A DNA stretch of 64,000 nucleotides from positions 126,590 to 190,589 of the forward strand of contig WJKM01000009.1 in NCBI GenBank assembly GCA_014729085.1, in the 5' to 3' direction. Below the pieces are notes generated by a model. The model did not search any database and was not told where the DNA came from. It saw only the letters and a list, made by a program, of their open reading frames with translations. This DNA is from Candidatus Dojkabacteria bacterium (GTDB lineage: Bacteria; Patescibacteriota; Dojkabacteria; B142; WJKM01). Of this stretch, positions 43,292-57,541 are shown in pieces; the stretch's first letter is position 1, and each line of letters begins with the position of its first letter. A program made the position numbers and the translations under genes.

Positions 43292-45190
43292 TTATTTATC
43301 GTCATTTTCAAATAAATAATCTCTGCCTTGCATAATCATATTAAACTCAAAGGTAAGGTAATCACCTATAGTTTGCTCAAAGTCTTCTGGCTTTGGTATT
43401 TCGTCATTAAAGTAATAGAAAGAATGTAGCCATTCGTCATCTGGTTCTATGGTTGTTTTCACCATAAATTTAGTATCTGCTGGTGCATCATGTAGCCAAC
43501 AACTTAGTAAATGTTCTTTTCTTTCTTTTGCTCTCTCAGTTTCTACAAGTCCGATATGCTTACTTACCACAAATCCATCATCTTCAAAGTTAATAAATTT
43601 ACAATACTTTTTGAGGTTATGTGGTTTATGAGATGTAAATATGGCTATGCATGGATTAGTTCCAATACCATAGAATGTATCCTTATTTAGTGTAATTACA
43701 CCTTCCAAAGTATGTTTTTCTAATATTCTTTTTTTAACCTGTCTATCTTCTTTTGTTTTACCTACCATAGTTGATTGAGGAATTATGACAGCTGCTCGTC
43801 CTTTGTCAGTTAGACTATCAAGTAAATGTTCAATGAAATGTATTTCTGATAAATGTGCAGTATCTTTTCCTTTGGCTTGTGAATAAGGAGGATTCATTAA
43901 ACCTACAGTATAATTATTTTTCCTCATCTCTTCTGCACTTCTCTTGAGAAAGTCATCTTTTAAAAGATTACTCTTTCCATCTCCACGTAAAATCATATTA
44001 GTAGTTGCAATGGCAAACATATCTTCTCTAATTTCTATTCCGTGTATTTGTTCTCTTTTAATTTTATTCTGTTTATTCTTATCTGCCTTCTTTAACATCT
44101 TATACATTGCGGTAATCAAAAAACTTCCTGTACCACATGTGGGGTCAAAGACAATATCATTTGGTTTTATATCCAATAAATCACAAAATAATTCAGTAAT
44201 ATGACTAGGAGTTAATACAACACCCAAAGTTTGACCATCACCACCACTATATCTAATAAATTCACCATAAAAACGTCCTAGAACATCCTCTTTAGAGTTT
44301 GCTACAACGCTATCAAAAACATTCTTTTTTAAATATTCAGTAAAGTATTTCAGCGGTGTTTTCTCTAGTCTTTTATCTACCTGATTAAGTATAGTTCTAT
44401 CCATTACAATATTAAATTGACTCAAAACTTGCTCCTTTTTGATTTCTGGCTTTACCTCAACACGTGTCATGTGTGTAGATAAAGCATCAAATATTATATT
44501 TCCATCTGTTTTTACGCTATCTCCTTTTAATAAGTCTGGAATATCTGGATTCTCATTTAAAGCTAGGAGAATAGCAGATACGACAAGGGGTTTTTCCTTA
44601 TCTCCAAGTTGTCCATAGTTTCTTAAATCTTCGTGAAGTGCTTTCGATTTCTTTAGTATTACTTCTAATTCAACCGTTTCGGGTGGCGTTTCATTAAGTA
44701 CCTGTTCTTTATAGTATCGTACGATATTTTCTTTAGAAAAATTTTCAAAATTTTCAACTGGTTCTAATAATATATATTCGTTTTCATTGACATATATAGG
44801 TCGAATCATGTGATGTTTCTCATCACCAGAACAACCAAAAGCAAATACCTTTTTGAAATTTGTTTTCTGTACTATTTGCCTAGCATAGTGCAAAGCCCCA
44901 TTTTCTGCATATTCAGTTATCGATTTTGTATCTGTTGCGAGATGAGAGTTGCTCTCATCTTCATATCTTGCTTGTTTGTCTAAATCAGCTTTATCCTCCA
45001 TTACAAGAATAAACTCATCTGATTTAGCTGTAAATTCTGGAAAGCCTACATTCCCTGTACCTTTCTTTGATGAAGTTTTTAGTGCATTTTCTATCTCTTT
45101 AATCCCACTTCCATTTGGTGTAAATTTAATGCCCACCTTGCCAAGTAATTTACCAACAAAGAAGTCAGTTATTTTTTCATTTTTACTCAT
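43292..45190 (-). CDS. fused endonuclease/N6-adenine methyltransferase subunit (BcgIA-like Type IIB/IIG; alternatively HsdM)
   Basis: Gamma-class MTase motifs FDPTCGTGSFL (motif I) and NPPYS (motif IV); N-terminal region with candidate PD-(D/E)xK (SDEFILVMEDK). 632 aa and 349 aa partner sizes resemble BcgI A/B (about 637/341 aa from memory); no HsdR is present in the element. Confidence 0.65.
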   Translation of the reverse strand: MSKNEKITDFFVGKLLGKVGIKFTPNGSGIKEIENALKTSSKKGTGNVGFPEFTAKSDEFILVMEDKADLDKQARYEDESNSHLATDTKSITEYAENGALHYARQIVQKTNFKKVFAFGCSGDEKHHMIRPIYVNENEYILLEPVENFENFSKENIVRYYKEQVLNETPPETVELEVILKKSKALHEDLRNYGQLGDKEKPLVVSAILLALNENPDIPDLLKGDSVKTDGNIIFDALSTHMTRVEVKPEIKKEQVLSQFNIVMDRTILNQVDKRLEKTPLKYFTEYLKKNVFDSVVANSKEDVLGRFYGEFIRYSGGDGQTLGVVLTPSHITELFCDLLDIKPNDIVFDPTCGTGSFLITAMYKMLKKADKNKQNKIKREQIHGIEIREDMFAIATTNMILRGDGKSNLLKDDFLKRSAEEMRKNNYTVGLMNPPYSQAKGKDTAHLSEIHFIEHLLDSLTDKGRAAVIIPQSTMVGKTKEDRQVKKRILEKHTLEGVITLNKDTFYGIGTNPCIAIFTSHKPHNLKKYCKFINFEDDGFVVSKHIGLVETERAKERKEHLLSCWLHDAPADTKFMVKTTIEPDDEWLHSFYYFNDEIPKPEDFEQTIGDYLTFEFNMIMQGRDYLFENDDK

Positions 45191-47161: not shown

Positions 47162-50100
47162 ATGACCAAACCGCTCAAAAAGGTCTTGATTGAAACTATC
47201 CACATTATTCACAATACAGTAAAAAGAGTACAGCTAAAAAACTTAAAGCTGTATTTTTTTATTTTGCCTTTTTTGCTTTTAACATTTACACCTGTTTTTG
47301 CTCAAACGACAGACGAATATAATTACTCAGATTGTGGATTTGTTATCGATGATTCAGATTCAGGTTGTTCAGAAGCATATGGTAATTGGAAACTACAGAA
47401 AATAGGAAATAAAGGGACATCATTACTTTCTCCAAAAGACACTTTCTTGCCTTCTGTTACATGGGTTCCAGATTATAAAAACCTGAAAGGGCAGGTTGAG
47501 GTATTTGCAACCATTCCAAGAATTGAGGGAGAAAATTTGTCCGAAGTTGCTTGGTACAAAATAAAACATAGTGAGGGTACAAGCGATTATTTTGTAAATC
47601 AAAAAGAAAATGCAGGAGATATAGTATCACTTGGAATATATAATTTCGATGGAACCGAAGTTTCAATAGATTTATATGGATCTGGTGGTGAGGTAGTTGT
47701 GGCAGATACTGTTTGTTTTGGTAGATGCTCAATAGGTGACATAACTCCACCAAGGATTGAAGAAGTTAAAGGACATAGTTATATGGGAGAATTACATGTT
47801 CAGTCAAAAATAACAGATGAAGGGACAGGTGTAAAGAATGCTTATGTATCAATTCAGGGAAATATTTACCCTATGAATGCAAAAGGAGATATTTATTCAG
47901 CGATTGTTCCATATATTCCAGGAACTGATTTGGAATGGTATATTCTTACATATGACAACGCAGGAAATGAAGCTATATGGGAACCTGGGCGTGGATATGT
48001 AACAAGAGGGGGAGGTTTAAATTTAGGAGTACCACCTGAGGCTGTTGATTTTGTTTGCTATAAAGAAGAGTTTAATAATACAGTCCCACCTGCAACACCA
48101 GGATCAGATCCATGTGAATGGACAACAGGAGATCCTGTAAATACTGTAAACGGAAATTTAATGGAAAGTGTAAATTTAATAAATATTTCCGGACGTCCTT
48201 CAATTAACCTTACTATCTACTATAACAGTCAAGGTACAGGTCTCTCAATTTTCGGTGAAAGTTGGCTTTATGATTATAATTACCATGTAACAGAGATGGA
48301 TAACGCTGACTTCAGTGGGGCTTTTGTGCAATATCCTTCAGGTAGCAATGCAATGTTCGAAAACTTCAAGTCTCCAGATGGAGTAAGAGACAAACTTGAA
48401 AAAATAGGAGATGGGTATCTTCTTACTCTTCAAGATCAGACAAAAATCTATTTTGATTCAAATGGAGATATTTCTAGATGGGAAGATATTAATAGAAATG
48501 GTCTAAACTTTGAATACTCAGAACAGATTAAATTTGTAAATTTTTCAAAGCTGTCAAAGATAACAGCAGATTCAGGTAGAAAAATTACATTTGAATACAA
48601 TGATGTTGGTTTAGTTTCTCAAATAAACGCACCAGAGAATAAAATTATCAAATTCGAATACAATGACACAGATGATTTAATTAAAATAATCAAACCTAAA
48701 GAAAGAGGGATTATATTTGAATACGATAATCACAGCATTACAAAAAAAATCAGTCCACAGGGACATGCATACTACGAAAATATCTTCGATAATCAAAGAA
48801 GAGTTATAAAACAAGTTGCAGGTACATCATTTACGCAGGAATATATTTATAATGACAATGAAACAATAGTTAAAAATCTTAACGGTTCACAAGCTGTCTA
48901 TAGTTATAACGAGGATTACTTAATGGTCAGCAATACAGATGAAGTTGGGAATACCAAGACATTTGAATACAACAATAAAAAGCAGATAATAGCTGAAATC
49001 GACGCTGAAGGGAAACGATATGAATACACATATGATGAAAATGGCAACCAGATACATATAAAAGATCCAATGGGATATGAGATAGAAAGAGAATTCAATG
49101 AATTTAATAAACCTGTAAAAGAAATCAACCAGAATGGAAAAGAAACTAGATGGGAATATGACAAAAAGGGAAATTTAGTCAAAATAATTAACTCAAATGG
49201 CAACGAAAAAATATTCAGCTATAACGAATATGGACAACTAATTGAGCAAACAGACTTTAATGGAAATAAAACTGTTTTCAAGTATACAGCTGAAGGTGAT
49301 CTTAAAAAGATAATAGATGCAGATGGAAATGAAATTGTATATACATACGATGAACTTGGAAGAATATTGACTGAAACAAACAAACGTGGGATTACCTACA
49401 CATACACCTATGATGTAAATGACAATCTTCTTAAAATTGAGGGACCTCTTGGATATACAAAATCATTTGAATATGACAAAAATAACAGACTTATTAAAGA
49501 GACTGACTCTAAACAAGAAATGATTTCGTATACATACGACAATTCGGAAAATATTTCTTCCATCTCAAATCAACTGCAATTTGTTACGAGTATGGAGTAC
49601 GGATCAATGAACGAATTTGCAAAAGGAATAGATGCTGAGGGACATATAACTGAATATGCATATCATCCTACGTACAAAATATCTCAAGTTAGACAGGCAG
49701 CTGGAACCTCAAAAGAAGCTATTTCTAATTTTGAATATAACAACGTAAAACTTCAAAAAAGAATTATAGATGCAGAAGGAAAGATTACCGAGTTTGTATA
49801 TGATGATTTATATAGAATAGTTAAAAAAATTGGAGACGTGAACGGAATTGAAATTGAAACACGTTTTAAGTACAATCCTGTTGGAGCCCTTGTTAAACAA
49901 ATCGATCCAAACGGAAATGCAGTTGAATATACTTTAGATAATTTAGATAGAGTAATCGAGCAAAAAGATGCCGAAGGAAACATTACAAAGTACGAATACG
50001 ACCCGAACTCAAACATTATAAGCACAACCAATCCAAGAGGCTTTAAGACAAAATTTGAATACAATAAGTTAAACCAACTTGTAAAGCAAATCAATTCAAT

Positions 50101-53100
50101 TGGTGCAGAAACAGAATACGAATATGACGGAAATGGGAATTTAGTTAAACAGGTTAATCCAAACGAAACAAGTACCAAGTTTATCTACGATGAGCTTGAT
50201 CGAATGGTAAGAGAAGAAAAATACTCAGAAGAAGATGAATTGTTAATTCAAATAAGATATGAATATGACTTAAATGGAAACATAACCAAAATAATAAATC
50301 CAAGAGGCTTTGAAACAAAATTTGAGTACGATGCAGCGAATCAAAATACAAAGATAATAGATGCCTATGGCAACATTATTGAATTTAAATACGATAAAGT
50401 AGGAAACAAGATTGAAACAATAGACAGAAATGGAAATTCAACAACAAATGTATATGACGAACTTAATAGAATAGTTGCAGAGATAAATGCAGAAAATAAT
50501 AAAACAAGTTATGGATACAACAAAGTAAATAACTTAACAAACATAACTGATGCAAAAGGCAACATTACAACATTAAAATATGATGGAGTAAACAGACTTA
50601 TTCAAAAAATTGATCCTTTGTCTGGTGAAACAAAAAAAGAATACGATCCTGCTGGAAATGTTTTAAAAGATATAGATCAGAATGGTCATGAGACAATCAA
50701 TGAATATGACAAAATAAACAGACTAATTAAAACAACCAATGCAGAAGGAGGAGTAAAAGAAATAAAATATGACAAAAATAGCAATATCGTAGAAATAAAA
50801 GACGAAAATGGAAATATTTCTCAAAATACATACGACAAACTCGATAGACTAGTTAAAACAGTAGATGCAGAAAATCAGGTAACAAAATACGAATATGATG
50901 TAATGGGAAATATGATTAAAAAGACAAATCCAAGAGGATATGAAACAAAATATGAATACGACGCTCTAAATAGACTTACTAAAACTATCGATGCAAAAGA
51001 AGGAGAAACAATATTTGAATATGATGAAAACTCAAATGTAGTTAAAACAATAGACCCAAATGGGATTTCTACAAAACACATCTATGATAAGTTAGATAGA
51101 CTGATTACTAAAATAGAAGCTCATGAATCCCTCCTTCATCAAGATTCCGGAGGGCAGGCAGGTGGAGGAGAAGCTGATACCAATGTCACAACACAATATA
51201 AATACGACAAAGAAGGAAATATTATTGAAGTAGTAAATCCAAAAGGAAATTCAACAAAGTTTGAATACGACAAGATATACAGACAAACGAAAATTACAGA
51301 TGCAAAAGGGAACTATACAAAATTTAAATACGATGAGGTAGATAATGTAGTACAAGTAACGGATAGAAATGGAAATGTTTCTACAAAGGAATATGACGCA
51401 CTAAGAAGAATTGTAAAGGAAATAAATGCAGAAAACCATAAGACAGAATATAGATATGATCCAAAAGGAAATATTAAAACAACAATAGACCCAAGAGGAA
51501 ATCCAACAAAGTTTGAGTACGACAAAATAGACAGATTAACTCAGACAATAGACGCCCTGGGCGGAGTTTGGAAAACCGAATACGATGCAGTGGGGAATGT
51601 TTTAAAAGAAACAGATGCAAATGGACATGCCAATAAGTACGAATACGACAAAGTATACAGGACTACAAAACAAACAAATGCAGAAGAACATTTTTCAAAA
51701 TTCAAATACGATGAAAATGGGAATGTCATTGAGACGCAAGACAACAATGGAAATGTAACATCATTCACATATGATGAACTAGATAGACTTGTTAAAAAAA
51801 TAGATGCGGAAGATGGAGAATGGTTATACGAATACGATGCAGTAGGAAATCTTCTATCTGAAACAGATGCAAACGAACACACAGACACGTACGAATACGA
51901 TAATATGTACAGATTATCGGTTCTCACAGACGCAGAAGGAAATACAACAAAATATGTTTACGACCTAAATGGCAATACAGTAGAAATAATAGATGGGAAT
52001 GGAAATTCAACAGAGAATGAAGTTGACGCTCTAGACCTCGTTATCAAAGTAACAAATGCTGAAAACGAGACAACAGAATATACTTACGATAAAGAGGAAA
52101 ATAAGATAAATAAGATAGATCCGGATGGTGTTGTTACTCACTTTGATTACGACAAGATTTATCAGCTTGTTAAAGTAACTCTGAATTACAAAGATACAAA
52201 CTTTACTGACTTTGATACAAATGTAGACACAAGCTACGAATATGATCCAAATGGGAATTTAACTAAAATCACAGATCCGAAAGTAAATGCTACAACTTTT
52301 GAGTACGATGCTTTAAATAGACAAATAAAGGAAATAGATGCAGAAGGAAATATTTGGAGATTTGAATATGATCCTGTTGGAAATAAAACAAAGAGAATAG
52401 ATGCAAACGGTAATTCTACAGTTTATGGATATTACGCAGACGATCAACTTCAAAATATCAGTTATTACGATGGGACAAACACATCATATGAATACGATCC
52501 AAATAACAATAAGATAAATATGCAGGATAGAATTGGAACAACAGATTGGACGTATGATGCATTAAATAGAAATACTTATGTAAATGATGCATTGAACAGA
52601 GAACTCACATACACATATGATCCAGTTGGAAACAGAACAAGTATGAAATATCCTGACGGAAAAATAGTAAAGTATTCCTACCTAAAAAATGACTGGATAA
52701 ACACATTCACAGATCCAGAACAAGGAGTAGTTAAATACGATAAAGACCATGTAGGAAATACAGTATTTATAGATAACCCAAATCAGACACAAACAACAAT
52801 AGATTATGATCGTGTATACAGACCTACAGAAATTCTCAATGAACAAATAGAGCAGGCTGCAAAAACAAACTCCAGATTTGAATATACATACAACGAAGTA
52901 GGACTTAAAACAGAAGTAGAAGCAGAATATGCGTGGAGAAAACCAAGTGTAGTTAGAACAGAGTACGTTTACGACAAGCTAAGAAGACTAAAGGAATCGG
53001 AAGATTCAGAAAACAAGTATTACGAATATCTTTATGACAGAGCAAGCAATAGAACCCGGATGCAAACTAACGACGATGAAACAACACCAAACCAATATGA

Positions 53101-55342
53101 CGGAATAAAACAAGGCTATAAATACAATAATATAAATCAGGTAATAGAAATAATAGAAGAAGGTGTGAGTGATATAACGAAAAAAAGAACACAAGGAAGA
53201 AGTCAGACATTTATTTATTTAGAAAATACTCTAGGTTTAAGAAATAAATATCACAATTTGGTAAATGAAATTGAGGCTCAACGAGGAGGACATATACCCG
53301 AAGAAACAGCAGAAGAACTTCTAGATTTATTGGAAAGGTTAGAGATGTTAGAAGGAGAAGAGAGTACAATTCTTTATGAGGATGCGATATTAATAATTGA
53401 AGAAGTAATAACAATAATAGAAGACGAAGTAGTACATGAAGGAACATTAAACAGCTTGCTTGCAAAAGTAGATGATGTAGAGCTAGAGGCAAAAGAGAAA
53501 GGCAGAGAAGTTGAGTGGAAAGAAAAGAAAGAGATAAATACACAAAAAAAGAATCTACTGAAGACAACAACATTTAGATACGATAATAATGGAAATAGAA
53601 TAAACGAACAATGGACCATGCCTAACGGCAGGCAGACCGGATCAACAGGACCTGCCTACCAAGGATTTGATTTTGGATATGATCCTGAAAATAGATTAAC
53701 AATTGCAATGAACTATCAACAAAATGACACAGGGAACAGAGTAGATAGAGGAGTAACAACAATGAATTACGATGGAGATGGAAGAAAACTAGTTAAGGTA
53801 TTTGATCCAAAAAGTCCGTTGGGGGAATGGGCAGATCCAAATCCACTTGATCCAGCATATGGAGTAGATGGAGGAGCTAAGAACATAGAATACGTATACG
53901 ACAATCTAGATCCAGTAGCTGAATATAATACATGGAACTCTCAACACGACAACTTCTACCGTGCCAGAGGGCAGGCAGGTAGAGGAGACATGAATAGAAT
54001 AGTAATGATGCAAAACTTCAAATCAGGGACACAGGGTCAGCGTTATTGGTACCACTATGATGCTTTAGGTTCAACTGTGGGACTTACAAAACACTCAGGA
54101 CAGTCACACCACAACTATAGATACGGAGATTTTGGACTTATTGAGACTATTACTGGGAAATCTGGAAACACATCAGGAGGAACATTTACAGATCCACATA
54201 ACCACTACACCTACACAGGGCAGGAGTGGGATGACCATATGAATGTATATGAATTCTACTCAAGAACTTACGATCCCTATACCGGCAGCTGGATGAGGCA
54301 GGATGATTATAGAGGGGATATCTCAGATCCAATGTCACTTCATAGGTATATGTATGTGAATCAAAATCCTATTAATTGGTGGGATTTATATGGTTACAAG
54401 ACAAATAATATTCCTATTTTGGGTCCTATTAATCATAAAAGTAATCAAATTAATAAAAGTATTAATTATGAACCTACCGTACTTACTCAACAAATCATGG
54501 AGTCTGTCAGACTAAGTTATGATCCATGCAATCGACAAACTTTTGATAAAGGATTCTTAATACCTACCGAATTGGAATCTCTTGCTGGAGGAGCAGCATT
54601 TGTACATAGGATGGGTTATAATATGTCAGATGGATTGTTTCTTGGTTCAATTGAGAATACTATATATATGCAAGAATCACAGAAAGATTTTGCAAGAAGA
54701 ATTTTCGATCAAGAATATAGAGAGAATGCTTTATATCCAGAACGATATCCTTTAAGAAAAACAAGAGAAGATTGGAGAGAGTTTAATGACAAGATTACAT
54801 TTTCTCTTGGAGTAAATCCACACAAACAAGTAAATAATGGATTGGCAACAAACATATTTGAAGGAACAGTAAATTCACTAACAGATCCACAGCCTGTAGG
54901 TTCAACACAATGGACATATGACACATTAAATATGGGTTTTGAGGGATATATGGTGTATAGTACGGTTACAGCAATAGATGACTTTTTAATGAAGAGAATA
55001 CCTGGAAATAATTCTATAAGTAGAAGACCAGCACAAGATGTGGTGCAGTATGAGATGTATAAGGAGCAGCTCAAATCGCAGCAAGCAGCTACAGTATTTA
55101 CTCAAAATGGGGAGTTGAAACCAAACGTGATTAGTAATAGTCATAGCATTATCGATGGAAAAGATTTGAAAAATCCTAGTGTAATTAAAGAATTGACTAA
55201 AGATGGATCAAAGATAGATAGTTGGGAGAAAATGAGTACTGATTCATACCCTAGTCCATCGGGAGATTTTCAAGTTCATTATTATCAAAATAAGGATACC
55301 GGTAAGATATATTATAATATTGATTATAAGGCTAAATTTTAA
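47162..55342 (+). CDS. rhs: RHS/YD-repeat polymorphic toxin (signal peptide, N-terminal domain, YD-repeat shell, RHS core, variable C-terminal toxin)
   Basis: Signal peptide; DPVNTVNGNL plug motif; dozens of YD repeats (YEYDxxGNL...); RHS core end YDPYTGSWMRQDDYRGDISDPMSLHRYMYVNQNPINWWDLYGY (degenerate DPxGL); ~310 aa unique C-terminal domain. 2726 aa. Confidence 0.9.
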   Translation: MTKPLKKVLIETIHIIHNTVKRVQLKNLKLYFFILPFLLLTFTPVFAQTTDEYNYSDCGFVIDDSDSGCSEAYGNWKLQKIGNKGTSLLSPKDTFLPSVTWVPDYKNLKGQVEVFATIPRIEGENLSEVAWYKIKHSEGTSDYFVNQKENAGDIVSLGIYNFDGTEVSIDLYGSGGEVVVADTVCFGRCSIGDITPPRIEEVKGHSYMGELHVQSKITDEGTGVKNAYVSIQGNIYPMNAKGDIYSAIVPYIPGTDLEWYILTYDNAGNEAIWEPGRGYVTRGGGLNLGVPPEAVDFVCYKEEFNNTVPPATPGSDPCEWTTGDPVNTVNGNLMESVNLINISGRPSINLTIYYNSQGTGLSIFGESWLYDYNYHVTEMDNADFSGAFVQYPSGSNAMFENFKSPDGVRDKLEKIGDGYLLTLQDQTKIYFDSNGDISRWEDINRNGLNFEYSEQIKFVNFSKLSKITADSGRKITFEYNDVGLVSQINAPENKIIKFEYNDTDDLIKIIKPKERGIIFEYDNHSITKKISPQGHAYYENIFDNQRRVIKQVAGTSFTQEYIYNDNETIVKNLNGSQAVYSYNEDYLMVSNTDEVGNTKTFEYNNKKQIIAEIDAEGKRYEYTYDENGNQIHIKDPMGYEIEREFNEFNKPVKEINQNGKETRWEYDKKGNLVKIINSNGNEKIFSYNEYGQLIEQTDFNGNKTVFKYTAEGDLKKIIDADGNEIVYTYDELGRILTETNKRGITYTYTYDVNDNLLKIEGPLGYTKSFEYDKNNRLIKETDSKQEMISYTYDNSENISSISNQLQFVTSMEYGSMNEFAKGIDAEGHITEYAYHPTYKISQVRQAAGTSKEAISNFEYNNVKLQKRIIDAEGKITEFVYDDLYRIVKKIGDVNGIEIETRFKYNPVGALVKQIDPNGNAVEYTLDNLDRVIEQKDAEGNITKYEYDPNSNIISTTNPRGFKTKFEYNKLNQLVKQINSIGAETEYEYDGNGNLVKQVNPNETSTKFIYDELDRMVREEKYSEEDELLIQIRYEYDLNGNITKIINPRGFETKFEYDAANQNTKIIDAYGNIIEFKYDKVGNKIETIDRNGNSTTNVYDELNRIVAEINAENNKTSYGYNKVNNLTNITDAKGNITTLKYDGVNRLIQKIDPLSGETKKEYDPAGNVLKDIDQNGHETINEYDKINRLIKTTNAEGGVKEIKYDKNSNIVEIKDENGNISQNTYDKLDRLVKTVDAENQVTKYEYDVMGNMIKKTNPRGYETKYEYDALNRLTKTIDAKEGETIFEYDENSNVVKTIDPNGISTKHIYDKLDRLITKIEAHESLLHQDSGGQAGGGEADTNVTTQYKYDKEGNIIEVVNPKGNSTKFEYDKIYRQTKITDAKGNYTKFKYDEVDNVVQVTDRNGNVSTKEYDALRRIVKEINAENHKTEYRYDPKGNIKTTIDPRGNPTKFEYDKIDRLTQTIDALGGVWKTEYDAVGNVLKETDANGHANKYEYDKVYRTTKQTNAEEHFSKFKYDENGNVIETQDNNGNVTSFTYDELDRLVKKIDAEDGEWLYEYDAVGNLLSETDANEHTDTYEYDNMYRLSVLTDAEGNTTKYVYDLNGNTVEIIDGNGNSTENEVDALDLVIKVTNAENETTEYTYDKEENKINKIDPDGVVTHFDYDKIYQLVKVTLNYKDTNFTDFDTNVDTSYEYDPNGNLTKITDPKVNATTFEYDALNRQIKEIDAEGNIWRFEYDPVGNKTKRIDANGNSTVYGYYADDQLQNISYYDGTNTSYEYDPNNNKINMQDRIGTTDWTYDALNRNTYVNDALNRELTYTYDPVGNRTSMKYPDGKIVKYSYLKNDWINTFTDPEQGVVKYDKDHVGNTVFIDNPNQTQTTIDYDRVYRPTEILNEQIEQAAKTNSRFEYTYNEVGLKTEVEAEYAWRKPSVVRTEYVYDKLRRLKESEDSENKYYEYLYDRASNRTRMQTNDDETTPNQYDGIKQGYKYNNINQVIEIIEEGVSDITKKRTQGRSQTFIYLENTLGLRNKYHNLVNEIEAQRGGHIPEETAEELLDLLERLEMLEGEESTILYEDAILIIEEVITIIEDEVVHEGTLNSLLAKVDDVELEAKEKGREVEWKEKKEINTQKKNLLKTTTFRYDNNGNRINEQWTMPNGRQTGSTGPAYQGFDFGYDPENRLTIAMNYQQNDTGNRVDRGVTTMNYDGDGRKLVKVFDPKSPLGEWADPNPLDPAYGVDGGAKNIEYVYDNLDPVAEYNTWNSQHDNFYRARGQAGRGDMNRIVMMQNFKSGTQGQRYWYHYDALGSTVGLTKHSGQSHHNYRYGDFGLIETITGKSGNTSGGTFTDPHNHYTYTGQEWDDHMNVYEFYSRTYDPYTGSWMRQDDYRGDISDPMSLHRYMYVNQNPINWWDLYGYKTNNIPILGPINHKSNQINKSINYEPTVLTQQIMESVRLSYDPCNRQTFDKGFLIPTELESLAGGAAFVHRMGYNMSDGLFLGSIENTIYMQESQKDFARRIFDQEYRENALYPERYPLRKTREDWREFNDKITFSLGVNPHKQVNNGLATNIFEGTVNSLTDPQPVGSTQWTYDTLNMGFEGYMVYSTVTAIDDFLMKRIPGNNSISRRPAQDVVQYEMYKEQLKSQQAATVFTQNGELKPNVISNSHSIIDGKDLKNPSVIKELTKDGSKIDSWEKMSTDSYPSPSGDFQVHYYQNKDTGKIYYNIDYKAKF
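48400..53200 (+). repeat. tandem YD-repeat coding array within rhs
   Basis: Recurrent xYxYDxxGN(L/I)xxxxD units at protein and DNA level; these generate the spurious antisense ORFs listed in the track. Confidence 0.8.
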
Positions 55343-55351
55343 CTTTTAAAT

Positions 55352-55861
55352 ATGAAAAAACAAAATATATGGGGTAACTTTAATAAATTAATAAATTCTG
55401 ACATATCTATTAAAGATTTTGAAGAATGGATCTATACAGATAAAACTATAGAAAAGATAATTGGTAAAGATAATTACGTCACACTTGTATCAATGAATTA
55501 CACTAAATCTGATAGTAAAGAAAAAGTACAAAAATACTTAGTTGAGTTATTTGAATCGTTAGAACCCGAGTTATATGATAAGTATAGAGTTTATAATATA
55601 TTAAAAGGGATGTTAGATGGACAAAAGGATTTAGTATCTGGGTGTAGAAGGTTAGTTCAATTAAGAAAAAGAGGACTGGAATTTATACCTAAAATTTTTG
55701 TAGGTTTTGATTCTGAACTAGATGATGTTCCTCTTCCTGAGCAATATTCACAATGGAACAAAAATGCTTTAGGAGAGAAATTAAAAAAAATTGATTATTA
55801 CAGGGAAGATATTATTAAATATTCAAAGAAATTAATTAAGGAATTAGATATTAGAAAATAA
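55352..55861 (+). CDS. putative cognate immunity protein for the rhs C-terminal toxin
   Basis: 169 aa, cytoplasmic, starts 9 bp after the rhs stop; position-based inference. Confidence 0.5.
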   Translation: MKKQNIWGNFNKLINSDISIKDFEEWIYTDKTIEKIIGKDNYVTLVSMNYTKSDSKEKVQKYLVELFESLEPELYDKYRVYNILKGMLDGQKDLVSGCRRLVQLRKRGLEFIPKIFVGFDSELDDVPLPEQYSQWNKNALGEKLKKIDYYREDIIKYSKKLIKELDIRK

Positions 55862-56230
55862 TTAGTATCTACTAACCTTGAATTTAGTTATAAGTTTGTA
55901 GAAAAATCAAGGGATGGATATTCTTTTATGGATATGTTAATTTATGCTTTTTGAATAAATTGTTTTTGTTTTCGTACCTATACCAGACACATAAATTTCT
56001 ATGGGATCGCCTTTACTCTTAATTGGAACATCAATTCCCCAAGTTGTTTCTTCAATTTTACATTTTTTTATCAGTTGCTGAACTATCCATAATAATGTCA
56101 CTATTCTGTGGCAAATATTTTTCAACATATCTTCCGTCATCTTTTTTTGTCGAAAAATTTGATAGTATCAATATTACAACACAAAGTGAATTTGCCAAAC
56201 TAATAGAAGGTATCGGAAATAATAGTAATC

Positions 56231-56362
56231 ATGTCTAATGGAAGAGTTGCTTACTGGGATGATATAACCCAAACTGTAGTCATTAAGAATCCAAATACAG
56301 TCTATGGTGGAACTTCTTTCAGGGCAATTAATGGGAAGGATTATTGTGACAATTTAAGATAA
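56231..56362 (+). pseudogene. decayed toxin-tip remnant (44-aa C-terminal fragment, frameshifted relative to ORF 56023..56238)
   Basis: MSNGRVAYWDDITQTVVIKNPNTVYGGTSFRAINGKDYCDNLR resembles a toxin-domain C-terminus. It overlaps the upstream ORF's stop (ATGTCTAA), so a single frameshift would fuse the two. Confidence 0.3.
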
Positions 56363-56390
56363 ATATTTAATAACTTATTAAAATTTAAAT

Positions 56391-56576
56391 ATGAAAATTA
56401 TTGACGAAAAGGATCAAGAATTGACTTTAAAGCTTTCTTACAGTGAGCTTCTGATCCTAAACAATGCTCTGAATGAAATCATAAATGGGATTGAAATCCC
56501 TGAATCTAATACAAGAATTGGGTATTCTAAAGAATATGTTACGAGCCTGTTGAATAAAATTAACAAATTATTATAA
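56391..56576 (+). CDS. small protein (61 aa), candidate immunity protein of the decayed toxin tip
   Basis: Starts 28 bp after the remnant; position-based inference only. Confidence 0.3.
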   Translation: MKIIDEKDQELTLKLSYSELLILNNALNEIINGIEIPESNTRIGYSKEYVTSLLNKINKLL

Positions 56577-56587
56577 ATATATTCTTT

Positions 56588-57135
56588 AAAAATCAGGACA
56601 GTCACACCACAACTATAGATACGGAGATTTTGGACTTATTGAAACCGTTACTGGGAAATCTGGAAACACATCAGGAGGAACATTTACAGATCCACATAAC
56701 CACTACACCTACACAGGACAGGAGTGGGATGACCATTTAAATATGTATGAGTTTTATGCAAGAGCTTATGATCCATATACAGGAGTATGGATGAGGCAGG
56801 ATAATTATAGAGGAGAAATACGAAACCCAATGAGTTTGCATAGGTATATGTATGTAAAGAATTCTCCTGTAAATTATATAGACATGTATGGGTATACATC
56901 TGGTTACTATATTGGTTGGGATGATTACAAAGAAGATTGGCATGAATTTTTAGATGATGTAGAAAATCAAAATCCACAATCTTATAGAGAATATCATGAT
57001 TTGATATCAAGTAATGGTGGTCAATACAAAGAATTTTCAAAAGTGAATCCTTGTGCTGGGAAAACACTTTTTGATGTTTATTCTGATGTTTCAAAAGAAT
57101 ATAGTTTTAAGTCTGGAAAGTTTTTATCTCATTGA
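56588..57135 (+). other. orphan rhs C-terminal toxin cassette (start-less core homology plus alternative toxin tip)
   Basis: 56588-56745 is ~95% identical to rhs 54095-54250 and stays in frame with continuing homology to ~56890 (DMYGY), then a novel 80-aa tip. A TAA sits immediately upstream and the first ATG (56743) is internal. Confidence 0.7.
56743..57135 (+). CDS. orphan RHS C-terminal toxin fragment (as an ORF from the first ATG)
   Basis: MYEFYARAYDPYTGVWMRQDNYRGEIRNPMSLHRYMYVKNSPVNYIDMYGY is paralogous to the rhs core end, followed by a different C-terminal domain. Confidence 0.6.
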   Translation: MYEFYARAYDPYTGVWMRQDNYRGEIRNPMSLHRYMYVKNSPVNYIDMYGYTSGYYIGWDDYKEDWHEFLDDVENQNPQSYREYHDLISSNGGQYKEFSKVNPCAGKTLFDVYSDVSKEYSFKSGKFLSH

Positions 57136-57232: not shown

Positions 57233-57541
57233 ATGGATAATTGTTGCAGTACAAATTCACAAAACTTTGCACAGATAGACAAATCAATAAATCTGCTAAA
57301 TGCTGTTAGTGAACCAAACAGGCTCAGAATTCTTTGTGTTCTTTCTAAGATGGATATCTGTGTTTGTGAACTCGCTGAAAAACTCAATGTTTCTCATAAT
57401 CTAATCTCACATCATTTAAAAGTATTATATGATGCAAGTGTTTTAGACAAAAGACGAGATGGAAATCAGTTCTTTTATTTTATTAAAAAAGTATGGAAGC
57501 CACGAATCAAACACCTTTTTGATTTTGTAAAAATTAGTTAA
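57233..57541 (+). CDS. arsR: ArsR/SmtB-family metalloregulator
   Basis: HTH with metal-binding ICVCELAEKLNVSHNLISHHLKVL (the CVC As(III)/metal site of ArsR). Confidence 0.8.
   Translation: MDNCCSTNSQNFAQIDKSINLLNAVSEPNRLRILCVLSKMDICVCELAEKLNVSHNLISHHLKVLYDASVLDKRRDGNQFFYFIKKVWKPRIKHLFDFVKIS

Follow-up and report, generated by a model that had tools for sequence, protein, structure and literature searches.

The 3′ end of an rhs gene in a 64,000-nucleotide (nt) stretch of a Candidatus Dojkabacteria bacterium (contig WJKM01000009.1, positions 126,590 to 190,589; the whole stretch is called the window here) is very probably followed by an orphan toxin-cassette array that arose by successive replacement of the C-terminal tip of a Sec-type Rhs protein. 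From 5′ to 3′, the array consists of the main rhs gene with its present tip (tip 1), a candidate immunity gene of 169 amino acids (aa) for that tip (immunity gene 1), the remnant of a second toxin (toxin 2), a 61-aa immunity gene (immunity gene 2), and a start-less cassette that joins a fragment of rhs core to a third tip (tip 3), after which an arsR operon begins. The original prediction, made from the DNA letters and their open reading frames (ORFs), had described an orphan rhs toxin-tip array composed of a decayed tip, a small ORF and a start-less, core-bearing cassette, and all of these parts were confirmed. The layout matches the orphan rhs-CT (C-terminal tip) arrays described in Salmonella, Dickeya, and Streptococcus suis, while literature searches turned up no published orphan rhs array from bacteria of the candidate phyla radiation (CPR). 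Tip diversification through orphan cassettes, described before in Proteobacteria and Firmicutes, can now be placed in a CPR genome with a Sec-type Rhs. The notable points are the CPR host, a unique tip that comes without an immunity gene, and a toxin/immunity remnant that crosses phyla; the accepted view of how orphan-cassette systems work is unchanged, and the layout is otherwise ordinary for a polymorphic toxin locus.

The start-less cassette and its core copy

The cassette (56590-57135, plus strand) lies downstream of the full-length main rhs gene, on the same strand, and carries, in frame, a copy of the 101 codons that end the main rhs core. Positions 54095-54397 and 56593-56895 align codon for codon, without a gap, at 83% aa identity (tblastn within the window, E 2.5e-57). 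The Rhs_assc_core model TIGR03696 matches both the main core (E 6.8e-13) and the orphan core (E 1.8e-14), and the DMYGY motif of the orphan core aligns with DLYGY of the main gene. Directly upstream of 56593 identity falls to a background of 12/55, and apart from the main gene this is the only core copy in the window. The predicted retention of about 300 nt of core homology, continuing in frame with diverged sequence as far as DMYGY, was thus borne out up to 56895, and the significant identity between the two segments on which the prediction depended is provided by the tblastn alignment. Its estimate that 56588-56745 is about 95% identical to 54095-54250 likewise stands (148/156), except that the left edge had been set 5 nt too far to the left of 56593.

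Divergence between the two core copies is mosaic. The first 144 nt match at 140 positions, including uninterrupted stretches of 50 and 70 nt, and have a synonymous divergence (dS) of 0.10; over the 159 nt that follow, nucleotide identity is 71%, dS is about 1.9, and the ratio of nonsynonymous to synonymous divergence (dN/dS) is 0.13. Differences at third positions affect 4 of 49 codons in the tract and then 25 of 52 (Fisher p = 7e-6). The step in dS near 54238/56736 therefore has the look of a footprint left by a homologous crossover or by a gene-conversion tract ending there, and the 3′ core ends, given their high dS and low dN/dS, appear to be alleles of long standing whose divergence took place under purifying selection. 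The two copies would have come to share the 5′ tract recently. We infer that homologous exchange passed through it in the past, either when the block with the current main tip was inserted or during later gene conversion.

The sequence comes from a genome assembled from metagenomic data, and repeats such as this one, 144 nt long and 97% identical, can mislead assemblers. Two strain variants of the rhs 3′ end might therefore have been joined through the repeat, in which case the "orphan" would be the main-tip allele of another strain. We regard such an artefact as very improbable, because at the 56592/56593 junction the repeat abuts unique sequence from the end of the 61-aa gene, which a repeat-mediated chimera would not produce, because the copies differ at 4 positions, and because the same architecture is found in related loci.

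Signals for translation of the cassette were judged against the window's own genes. A Shine-Dalgarno motif is absent from the 41 gene starts of the window, which lie in AT-rich leaders, several of them reading TTTAAAT ATG AAA. On a start-context matrix trained on these 41 starts versus 264 internal ATGs, scores are 2.46 +/- 4.1 for true starts (leave-one-out) and -4.92 +/- 3.9 for internal ATGs. The first in-frame ATG of the cassette, at 56743, scores -4.88, equal to the internal-ATG median and lower than 97.6% of true starts; scores of the remaining in-frame ATGs range from -3.2 to -7.0. Because its in-frame ATGs score like internal ones, the cassette has no credible start. An in-frame TAA two codons upstream of the core homology closes the frame on its 5′ side. 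These results accord with the predicted start-less displaced tip, in which a TAA lies upstream and no start codon precedes an internal ATG, and they reveal no in-frame ATG with the context of a functional start. Up to its stop the frame is coding-like: on a codon-usage scale where true genes score 0.35 +/- 0.13 per codon and wrong frames -0.75, the core part scores 0.28 and the tip 0.40, with sliding windows between 0.28 and 0.75. The cassette thus has two features of orphan rhs-CT modules, in that it lacks an N-terminal region, initiation signals and export signals (with the caveat of an ATT start called by NCBI), and in that it keeps a core fragment ending in a motif that demarcates the C-terminal tip (DPxGL type, here DMYGY).

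The ATT call invites a different view, that the cassette is an independent small gene, translated alone from ATT 56638 or from ATG 56743 into a cytoplasmic protein of 130-165 aa. NCBI calls such a protein, MBD3362706.1, and the cassette-encoded protein is 99% identical to it. In a genome that does without Shine-Dalgarno motifs their absence proves nothing, TTTAAAT precedes ATG 56743 as it does at three genuine starts, and no predicted terminator separates the cassette from the 61-aa gene. We nevertheless find this improbable, since neither ATG 56743, on its full score, nor the other in-frame ATGs resemble starts, since the product would begin inside the Rhs core plug and bear no export signal, and since a free orphan product was not detected in Salmonella (PMC3967940). 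The ATT start itself looks like a gene-caller fallback.

There is also a 22-nt inverted repeat (82% complementary, 56571-56592 / 57089-57110): one arm stops precisely where the core homology begins on the left, and the other falls within tip 3, 25 nt before the stop. The repeat is AT-rich and probably due to chance.

A decayed toxin and its retained immunity gene

The 730 nt between immunity gene 1 and the cassette contain a 43-aa ORF (56231-56359) that matches the final 43 residues of a "VENN motif pre-toxin" protein of Pantoea dispersa at 58% identity. It is out of frame with the preceding reading frame, and when that upstream frame (56155-56235) is joined on, 72 aa match the very end of the Pantoea toxin at 47% identity (E 7e-19); tblastn of the remnant against the plasmids of PLSDB gives E 1e-7. 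A profile built from six members of this toxin family matches one frame at its positions 54-79 and the next frame at positions 78-125, while positions 1-53, including the GHAxxKH motif, match in none of the six frames. The remnant is therefore truncated at its 5′ end and frameshifted, and an intact toxin domain with the GHAxxKH region is missing from it, as is any core or VENN fragment upstream. A word-index protein search with the decayed tip had given a false negative; homologues are present in RefSeq plasmids. The same toxin domain occurs on CdiA proteins of the DUF637 and VENN types, on a MafB-like protein, on an Rhs of the cyanobacterium Rippkaea, and on secreted 131-aa proteins encoded by 21 Phaeobacter plasmids.

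The 61-aa ORF that follows aligns along its entire length, at 46% identity, with the ORF immediately behind a decayed orphan in Rahnella (E 2e-18), and over 49 aa, at 53% identity, with the one behind the Pantoea toxin (E 1e-15); the equivalent Phaeobacter ORF shows no detectable similarity to it. Because it is homologous to ORFs that follow the same toxin, we read it as an intact immunity gene whose toxin partner has decayed, and on this homology it is the orphan immunity gene of toxin 2. Its start-context score, 9.46, is the highest of the window's gene starts. When the 61-aa ORF alone was compared with plasmids by tblastn, no match was returned despite the pairwise E of 2e-18; a low-complexity filter is the likely cause, and this negative is untrustworthy. 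The original prediction had placed an older decayed tip here, made up of a 44-aa fragment resembling a toxin C-terminus, frameshifted against the preceding ORF, and a 61-aa candidate immunity gene. Toxin homology and a cognate downstream ORF support the decayed tip and the immunity gene; the frameshifted fragment is upheld too, with the amendments that it is 43 aa long and that only the last ~27 codons of the preceding ORF derive from the toxin.

The closest parallels to this pair are cdiA-CT/cdiI arrays on a Rahnella sikkimica plasmid (L040) and at a Pantoea dispersa VENN toxin (L041), which have a homologous toxin and downstream ORF; in Rahnella, as here, the toxin is frameshifted and the immunity ORF intact. 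The scaffold in those arrays is a CdiA with a VENN junction, whereas here it is an Rhs locus. Thus, a toxin/immunity module of CdiA, MafB-like and cyanobacterial Rhs proteins has also reached the Dojkabacteria lineage. In the Rahnella array (L040 2880-3330) the toxin is broken so that VENN lies in one frame and the last ~35 residues in another, and the 68-aa immunity ORF is intact, a parallel case of toxin decay with retention of the immunity gene. On a plasmid of Rippkaea orientalis (L046 1826-2719), a 297-aa ORF after the toxin-bearing Rhs contains two tandem immunity domains resembling the 61-aa ORF.

Probable displacement and possible use of tip 3

Beyond DMYGY the cassette continues into a tip of 79 aa (80 in the original prediction) that is acidic (pI 4.8) and, as had been proposed, unrelated to the main tip: tip 1 has 314 aa, and tblastn detects no similarity between the two. 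Exhaustive HMMER searching of 1.84 billion representative proteins with tip 3 found only its own protein and two repeat-protein artefacts (P0005 and P0006), which were rejected as homologues because they are internally repetitive and score through many weak stretches. Tip 3 has no match in PDB, Pfam or plasmids, and scans of metagenome DNA gave 0 hits both with its back-translated peptide and with the locus-specific core variant. We also rejected recoding of UGA as a means of extending tip 3: TGA terminates 5 of 41 genes, and reading through it would lengthen the tip by just 10 codons.

From this anatomy we can sketch how, and in which direction, displacement would have occurred and how tip 3 might yet be redeployed. 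A block comprising a new core end, tip 1, immunity gene 1, the toxin 2 remnant and immunity gene 2 would have been inserted by homologous exchange within the tract, possibly through Campbell-type integration of a circular intermediate, and the exchange would have duplicated the tract and pushed the former core end and tip 3 downstream. Since the distal cassette follows a stop and has neither a credible start nor a signal peptide, it could not be made or exported alone, and its expression would depend on RecA-type recombination through the near-identical 144-nt tract. By the reverse exchange, 2,498 bp (tip 1, immunity gene 1, the toxin 2 remnant and immunity gene 2) would be lost and an in-frame 2,491-aa Rhs with tip 3 would result. 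The orphan rhs-CT modules of Salmonella, which have no signals for initiation or export, are expressed only once they have recombined with the main gene, and a deletion-type rearrangement fusing an orphan tip to the main rhs has been shown experimentally (PMC3967940). "Rhs orphans" have also been described for the Sec-dependent WapA of Streptococcus suis (PMC12704120), orphans being on record for T6SS-linked (type VI secretion system) Rhs proteins as well as for WapA, and the logic of cassettes with immunity genes is general to polymorphic toxins (PMC3482391). Swapping of tip 3 into the main rhs may be possible, and because no immunity gene accompanies tip 3, the recombinant would be viable only if the tip is harmless to its producer. 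Immunity gene 2, for its part, may have been kept as a stand-alone defence against neighbours that still bear toxin 2.

A canonical orphan module is a toxin/immunity pair, and here no cognate immunity gene follows the tip; as the original prediction had noted, arsR comes next, after 97 nt without an ORF between. The 61-aa ORF was considered as an upstream immunity gene for tip 3 and rejected, since conserved synteny pairs it with toxin 2. The lack of an immunity gene speaks for a relic, or for a toxin directed at non-kin cells. On the first of these readings, which differs from the tip-replacement array on function only, the distal cassette is the fossil of a former tip that is never redeployed, the toxin domain, the immunity gene or both having been lost in a deletion that now abuts arsR, and the function of the array is limited to immunity gene 2. 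We lean mildly towards this reading. It gains from the arsR promoter region, which directly follows the stop and leaves no immunity gene between, from the small size of an acidic tip predicted to be helical at low confidence, and from the lack of a homologue anywhere searched; moreover, the toxin module of tip 1 occupies only the last ~100 of 314 aa, so 79 aa could be mere linker. It is harder to reconcile with the 181 open codons, coding-like in usage up to the stop, and with the 144-nt tract, whose 97% identity implies that the copy is young or recently converted. Because tip 3 lacks an immunity gene, we rate a silent relic above a reserve weapon: the former is somewhat probable, whereas a tip still usable as a weapon seems rather unlikely.

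Alternatively, the Rhs tips of this host-dependent CPR bacterium may be aimed at its host or at non-kin cells, making an immunity gene unnecessary, with tip 3 as a reserve effector switched in across the 144-nt tract. If true, cassette switching would serve host interaction and not kin competition, an idea to which we give little credence.

Several observations weigh against an array of displaced and recoverable tips. Neither a recombinant allele nor another copy of tip 3 turned up in the protein and metagenome collections searched. Tip 3 lacks a homologue, and its fold is not predicted with confidence (AlphaFold predicted local distance difference test, pLDDT, of 50, too low for a fold search), so that it is at best a putative toxin. 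No immunity gene comes after it, and no ORF of at least 25 aa starts in the 97 nt before arsR. The NCBI pipeline treats the cassette as a gene of 165 aa that starts at an ATT. Finally, the array is known from a metagenome-assembled genome.

The main Rhs gene, related loci and neighbouring features

The main gene has the features of an Rhs/YD-repeat polymorphic toxin, with repeats, a core, a variable C-terminal tip and a small ORF downstream. Pfam finds RHS_repeat (E 1.8e-192, 21 repeats), Golvesin_C and DUF6531 but no PAAR domain, which would mark an Rhs delivered by a type VI secretion system (T6SS), and the N-terminus is hydrophobic and resembles a signal peptide, as read from the sequence without a predictor. 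On these grounds we take the main gene to be a Sec-type (WapA-like) Rhs polymorphic toxin. The last ~100 aa of tip 1 share 52% identity with the C-terminal end of a DUF4157 protein (P0007) and ~31% with an ORF in an array behind a filamentous haemagglutinin on Campylobacter concisus pCCON31, so that the end of tip 1 appears to be a module common to other polymorphic-toxin proteins. The AlphaFold model of this C-terminal domain (pLDDT 63) gave nothing meaningful with Foldseek against PDB. The 169-aa ORF has a codon-usage score of 0.41 per codon and distant homologues on Sporosarcina, Pseudoalteromonas and Spirosoma plasmids. Sequence searches of Pfam, NCBIfam and PDB with the tips, immunity candidates and small ORFs gave no matches. 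A concatenated query (main tip, immunity gene and small ORFs) returned P0007 alone and missed the window's own proteins in the same collection, so its negatives are unreliable.

The Golvesin_C domain (47342-47719, residues 61-186 of the main Rhs, E 3e-12) is an unusual presentation domain for an Rhs toxin. G+C content in the 3′ core region at 53600-54350 reaches 40-42%, compared with 31% for the window, and the rest of the gene is near the genome average.

Among known systems, the locus most resembles the rhs-CT/rhsI orphans of enterobacteria such as STM0292 of Salmonella Typhimurium LT2 (Koskiniemi et al. 2014, PMC3967940), in which the main rhs is followed, in the same orientation, by a fragment that retains the end of the core as far as a DPxGL-type motif, has no initiation or export signals, and has a homology tract in common with the main gene, by which recombination can join the two. 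It departs from them in having no immunity gene after the tip, a signal peptide on the main Rhs, no PAAR/T6SS context, and a CPR host; recombination was shown experimentally in Salmonella, whereas here both recombination and toxicity are hypothetical. Sec-dependent WapA/Rhs proteins, including the one with the "CT2" orphan of S. suis (PMC12704120), offer a second comparison: they too have an N-terminal signal, DUF6531 and an RHS barrel without a T6SS, and the S. suis orphan is likewise a truncated downstream duplicate with an incomplete core and no signal peptide. That orphan has an immunity partner, however, while the cassette here does not, and the window contains no sortase or SecF-like neighbour and has Golvesin_C in place of a cell-wall-binding domain.

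A scan for the core-end motif across 185,579 species representatives of GTDB found 39 loci at 45-60% aa identity, from filamentous Chloroflexota, cable bacteria (Electrothrix, Electronema), Desulfobacterales (Desulfonema) and Beggiatoa-like genomes; none of the 39 is from a CPR genome. This distribution of relatives may hint at horizontal acquisition or at a link to a host. Partial core copies lie downstream in 3 of the 39 loci (L012, L034, L039), which suggests that orphan formation is normal for this core subfamily. Two of these, the Chloroflexota Rhs loci of Bacterium HR08 (L034) and Ardenticatena (L012), belong to the same core-end subfamily at 45-47% aa identity and have a second partial core copy with a new tip 1-1.5 kb downstream. 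Unlike our cassette, theirs are followed by further ORFs that are possible immunity genes, and in L034 the orphan core is near-identical to the main core up to the motif, whereas here this holds for the first 144 nt only.

Table 1. Features of the rhs array and its surroundings, in window coordinates
Feature	Coordinates	Strand	Locus tag (NCBI)	Details
Main rhs gene	47162-55342	+	GF362_03215	2726 aa; ORF list, Pfam, TIGR03696; NCBI "hypothetical"
Main-gene copy of the near-identical 144-nt tract	54095-54238	+		candidate crossover substrate
DLYGY motif	54383-54397	+		end of main core; counterpart of DPxGL
Main toxin tip (tip 1)	54398-55339	+		314 aa
Candidate immunity gene 1, for main tip	55352-55861	+	GF362_03220	169 aa; starts 9 nt after rhs stop; NCBI "hypothetical"
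Minus-strand ORF	55937-56140	-	GF362_03225	67 aa; NCBI "hypothetical"; codon usage 0.26 per codon
Decayed toxin 2 tip	56155-56362	+		last ~72 residues of toxin domain; frameshift ~56231-56238
Immunity gene 2	56391-56576	+	GF362_03230	61 aa, intact; probable cognate of decayed toxin 2; NCBI "hypothetical"
In-frame TAA closing cassette frame	56587-56589	+		
Orphan copy of near-identical core tract	56593-56736	+		
Diverged 3′ end of orphan core	56737-56895	+		DMYGY at 56881-56895
Orphan tip 3	56896-57135	+		79 aa and TGA stop
Cassette as called by NCBI			GF362_03235 (MBD3362706.1)	165 aa, ATT start; NCBI "hypothetical"; ArsR gene follows
arsR	57233-57541	+		97 nt after cassette stop; Pfam HTH_5 E 6.8e-13; end of array

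In the public record every protein of the locus other than ArsR is "hypothetical" and a singleton at 90% identity, and exact-protein look-ups of contigs for three locus proteins had none on record. Our analysis corrects this annotation, replacing the five "hypothetical proteins" with an Rhs toxin, a candidate immunity gene, a doubtful minus-strand ORF, a putative orphan immunity gene and an orphan rhs-CT fragment. At the distal end, arsR heads an unrelated operon of arsR, a thioredoxin-like gene and an ArsP permease gene (Pfam HTH_5, Thioredoxin_3 and ArsP_1). Two genes upstream of rhs, at 43292-45190 on the minus strand, is a 632-aa N6 DNA methylase of the Eco57I/MmeI type, and the 378-aa gene between the methylase and rhs has no Pfam match.

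The gap at 55862-56150 is T-rich on the plus strand (negative purine skew) and has a coding-like signal on the minus strand. The 67-aa minus-strand ORF called there, for which no homologue was found, is probably not part of the toxin system. On the minus strand, codon usage is coding-like first in one frame (56198-56058) and then in a second (56140-55937), the pattern that a frameshifted gene between the two cassettes would give. Minus-strand positions 56097-56138 (DGRYVEKY) were considered as an inverted relic of the GHAxxKH region and rejected on a profile score of -1.7. A terminator-like hairpin with a T-run lies at 56096-56113 on the plus strand, downstream of the 169-aa immunity gene and ahead of the decayed cassette; the rhs operon could stop there, and the 61-aa gene would then need a promoter of its own.

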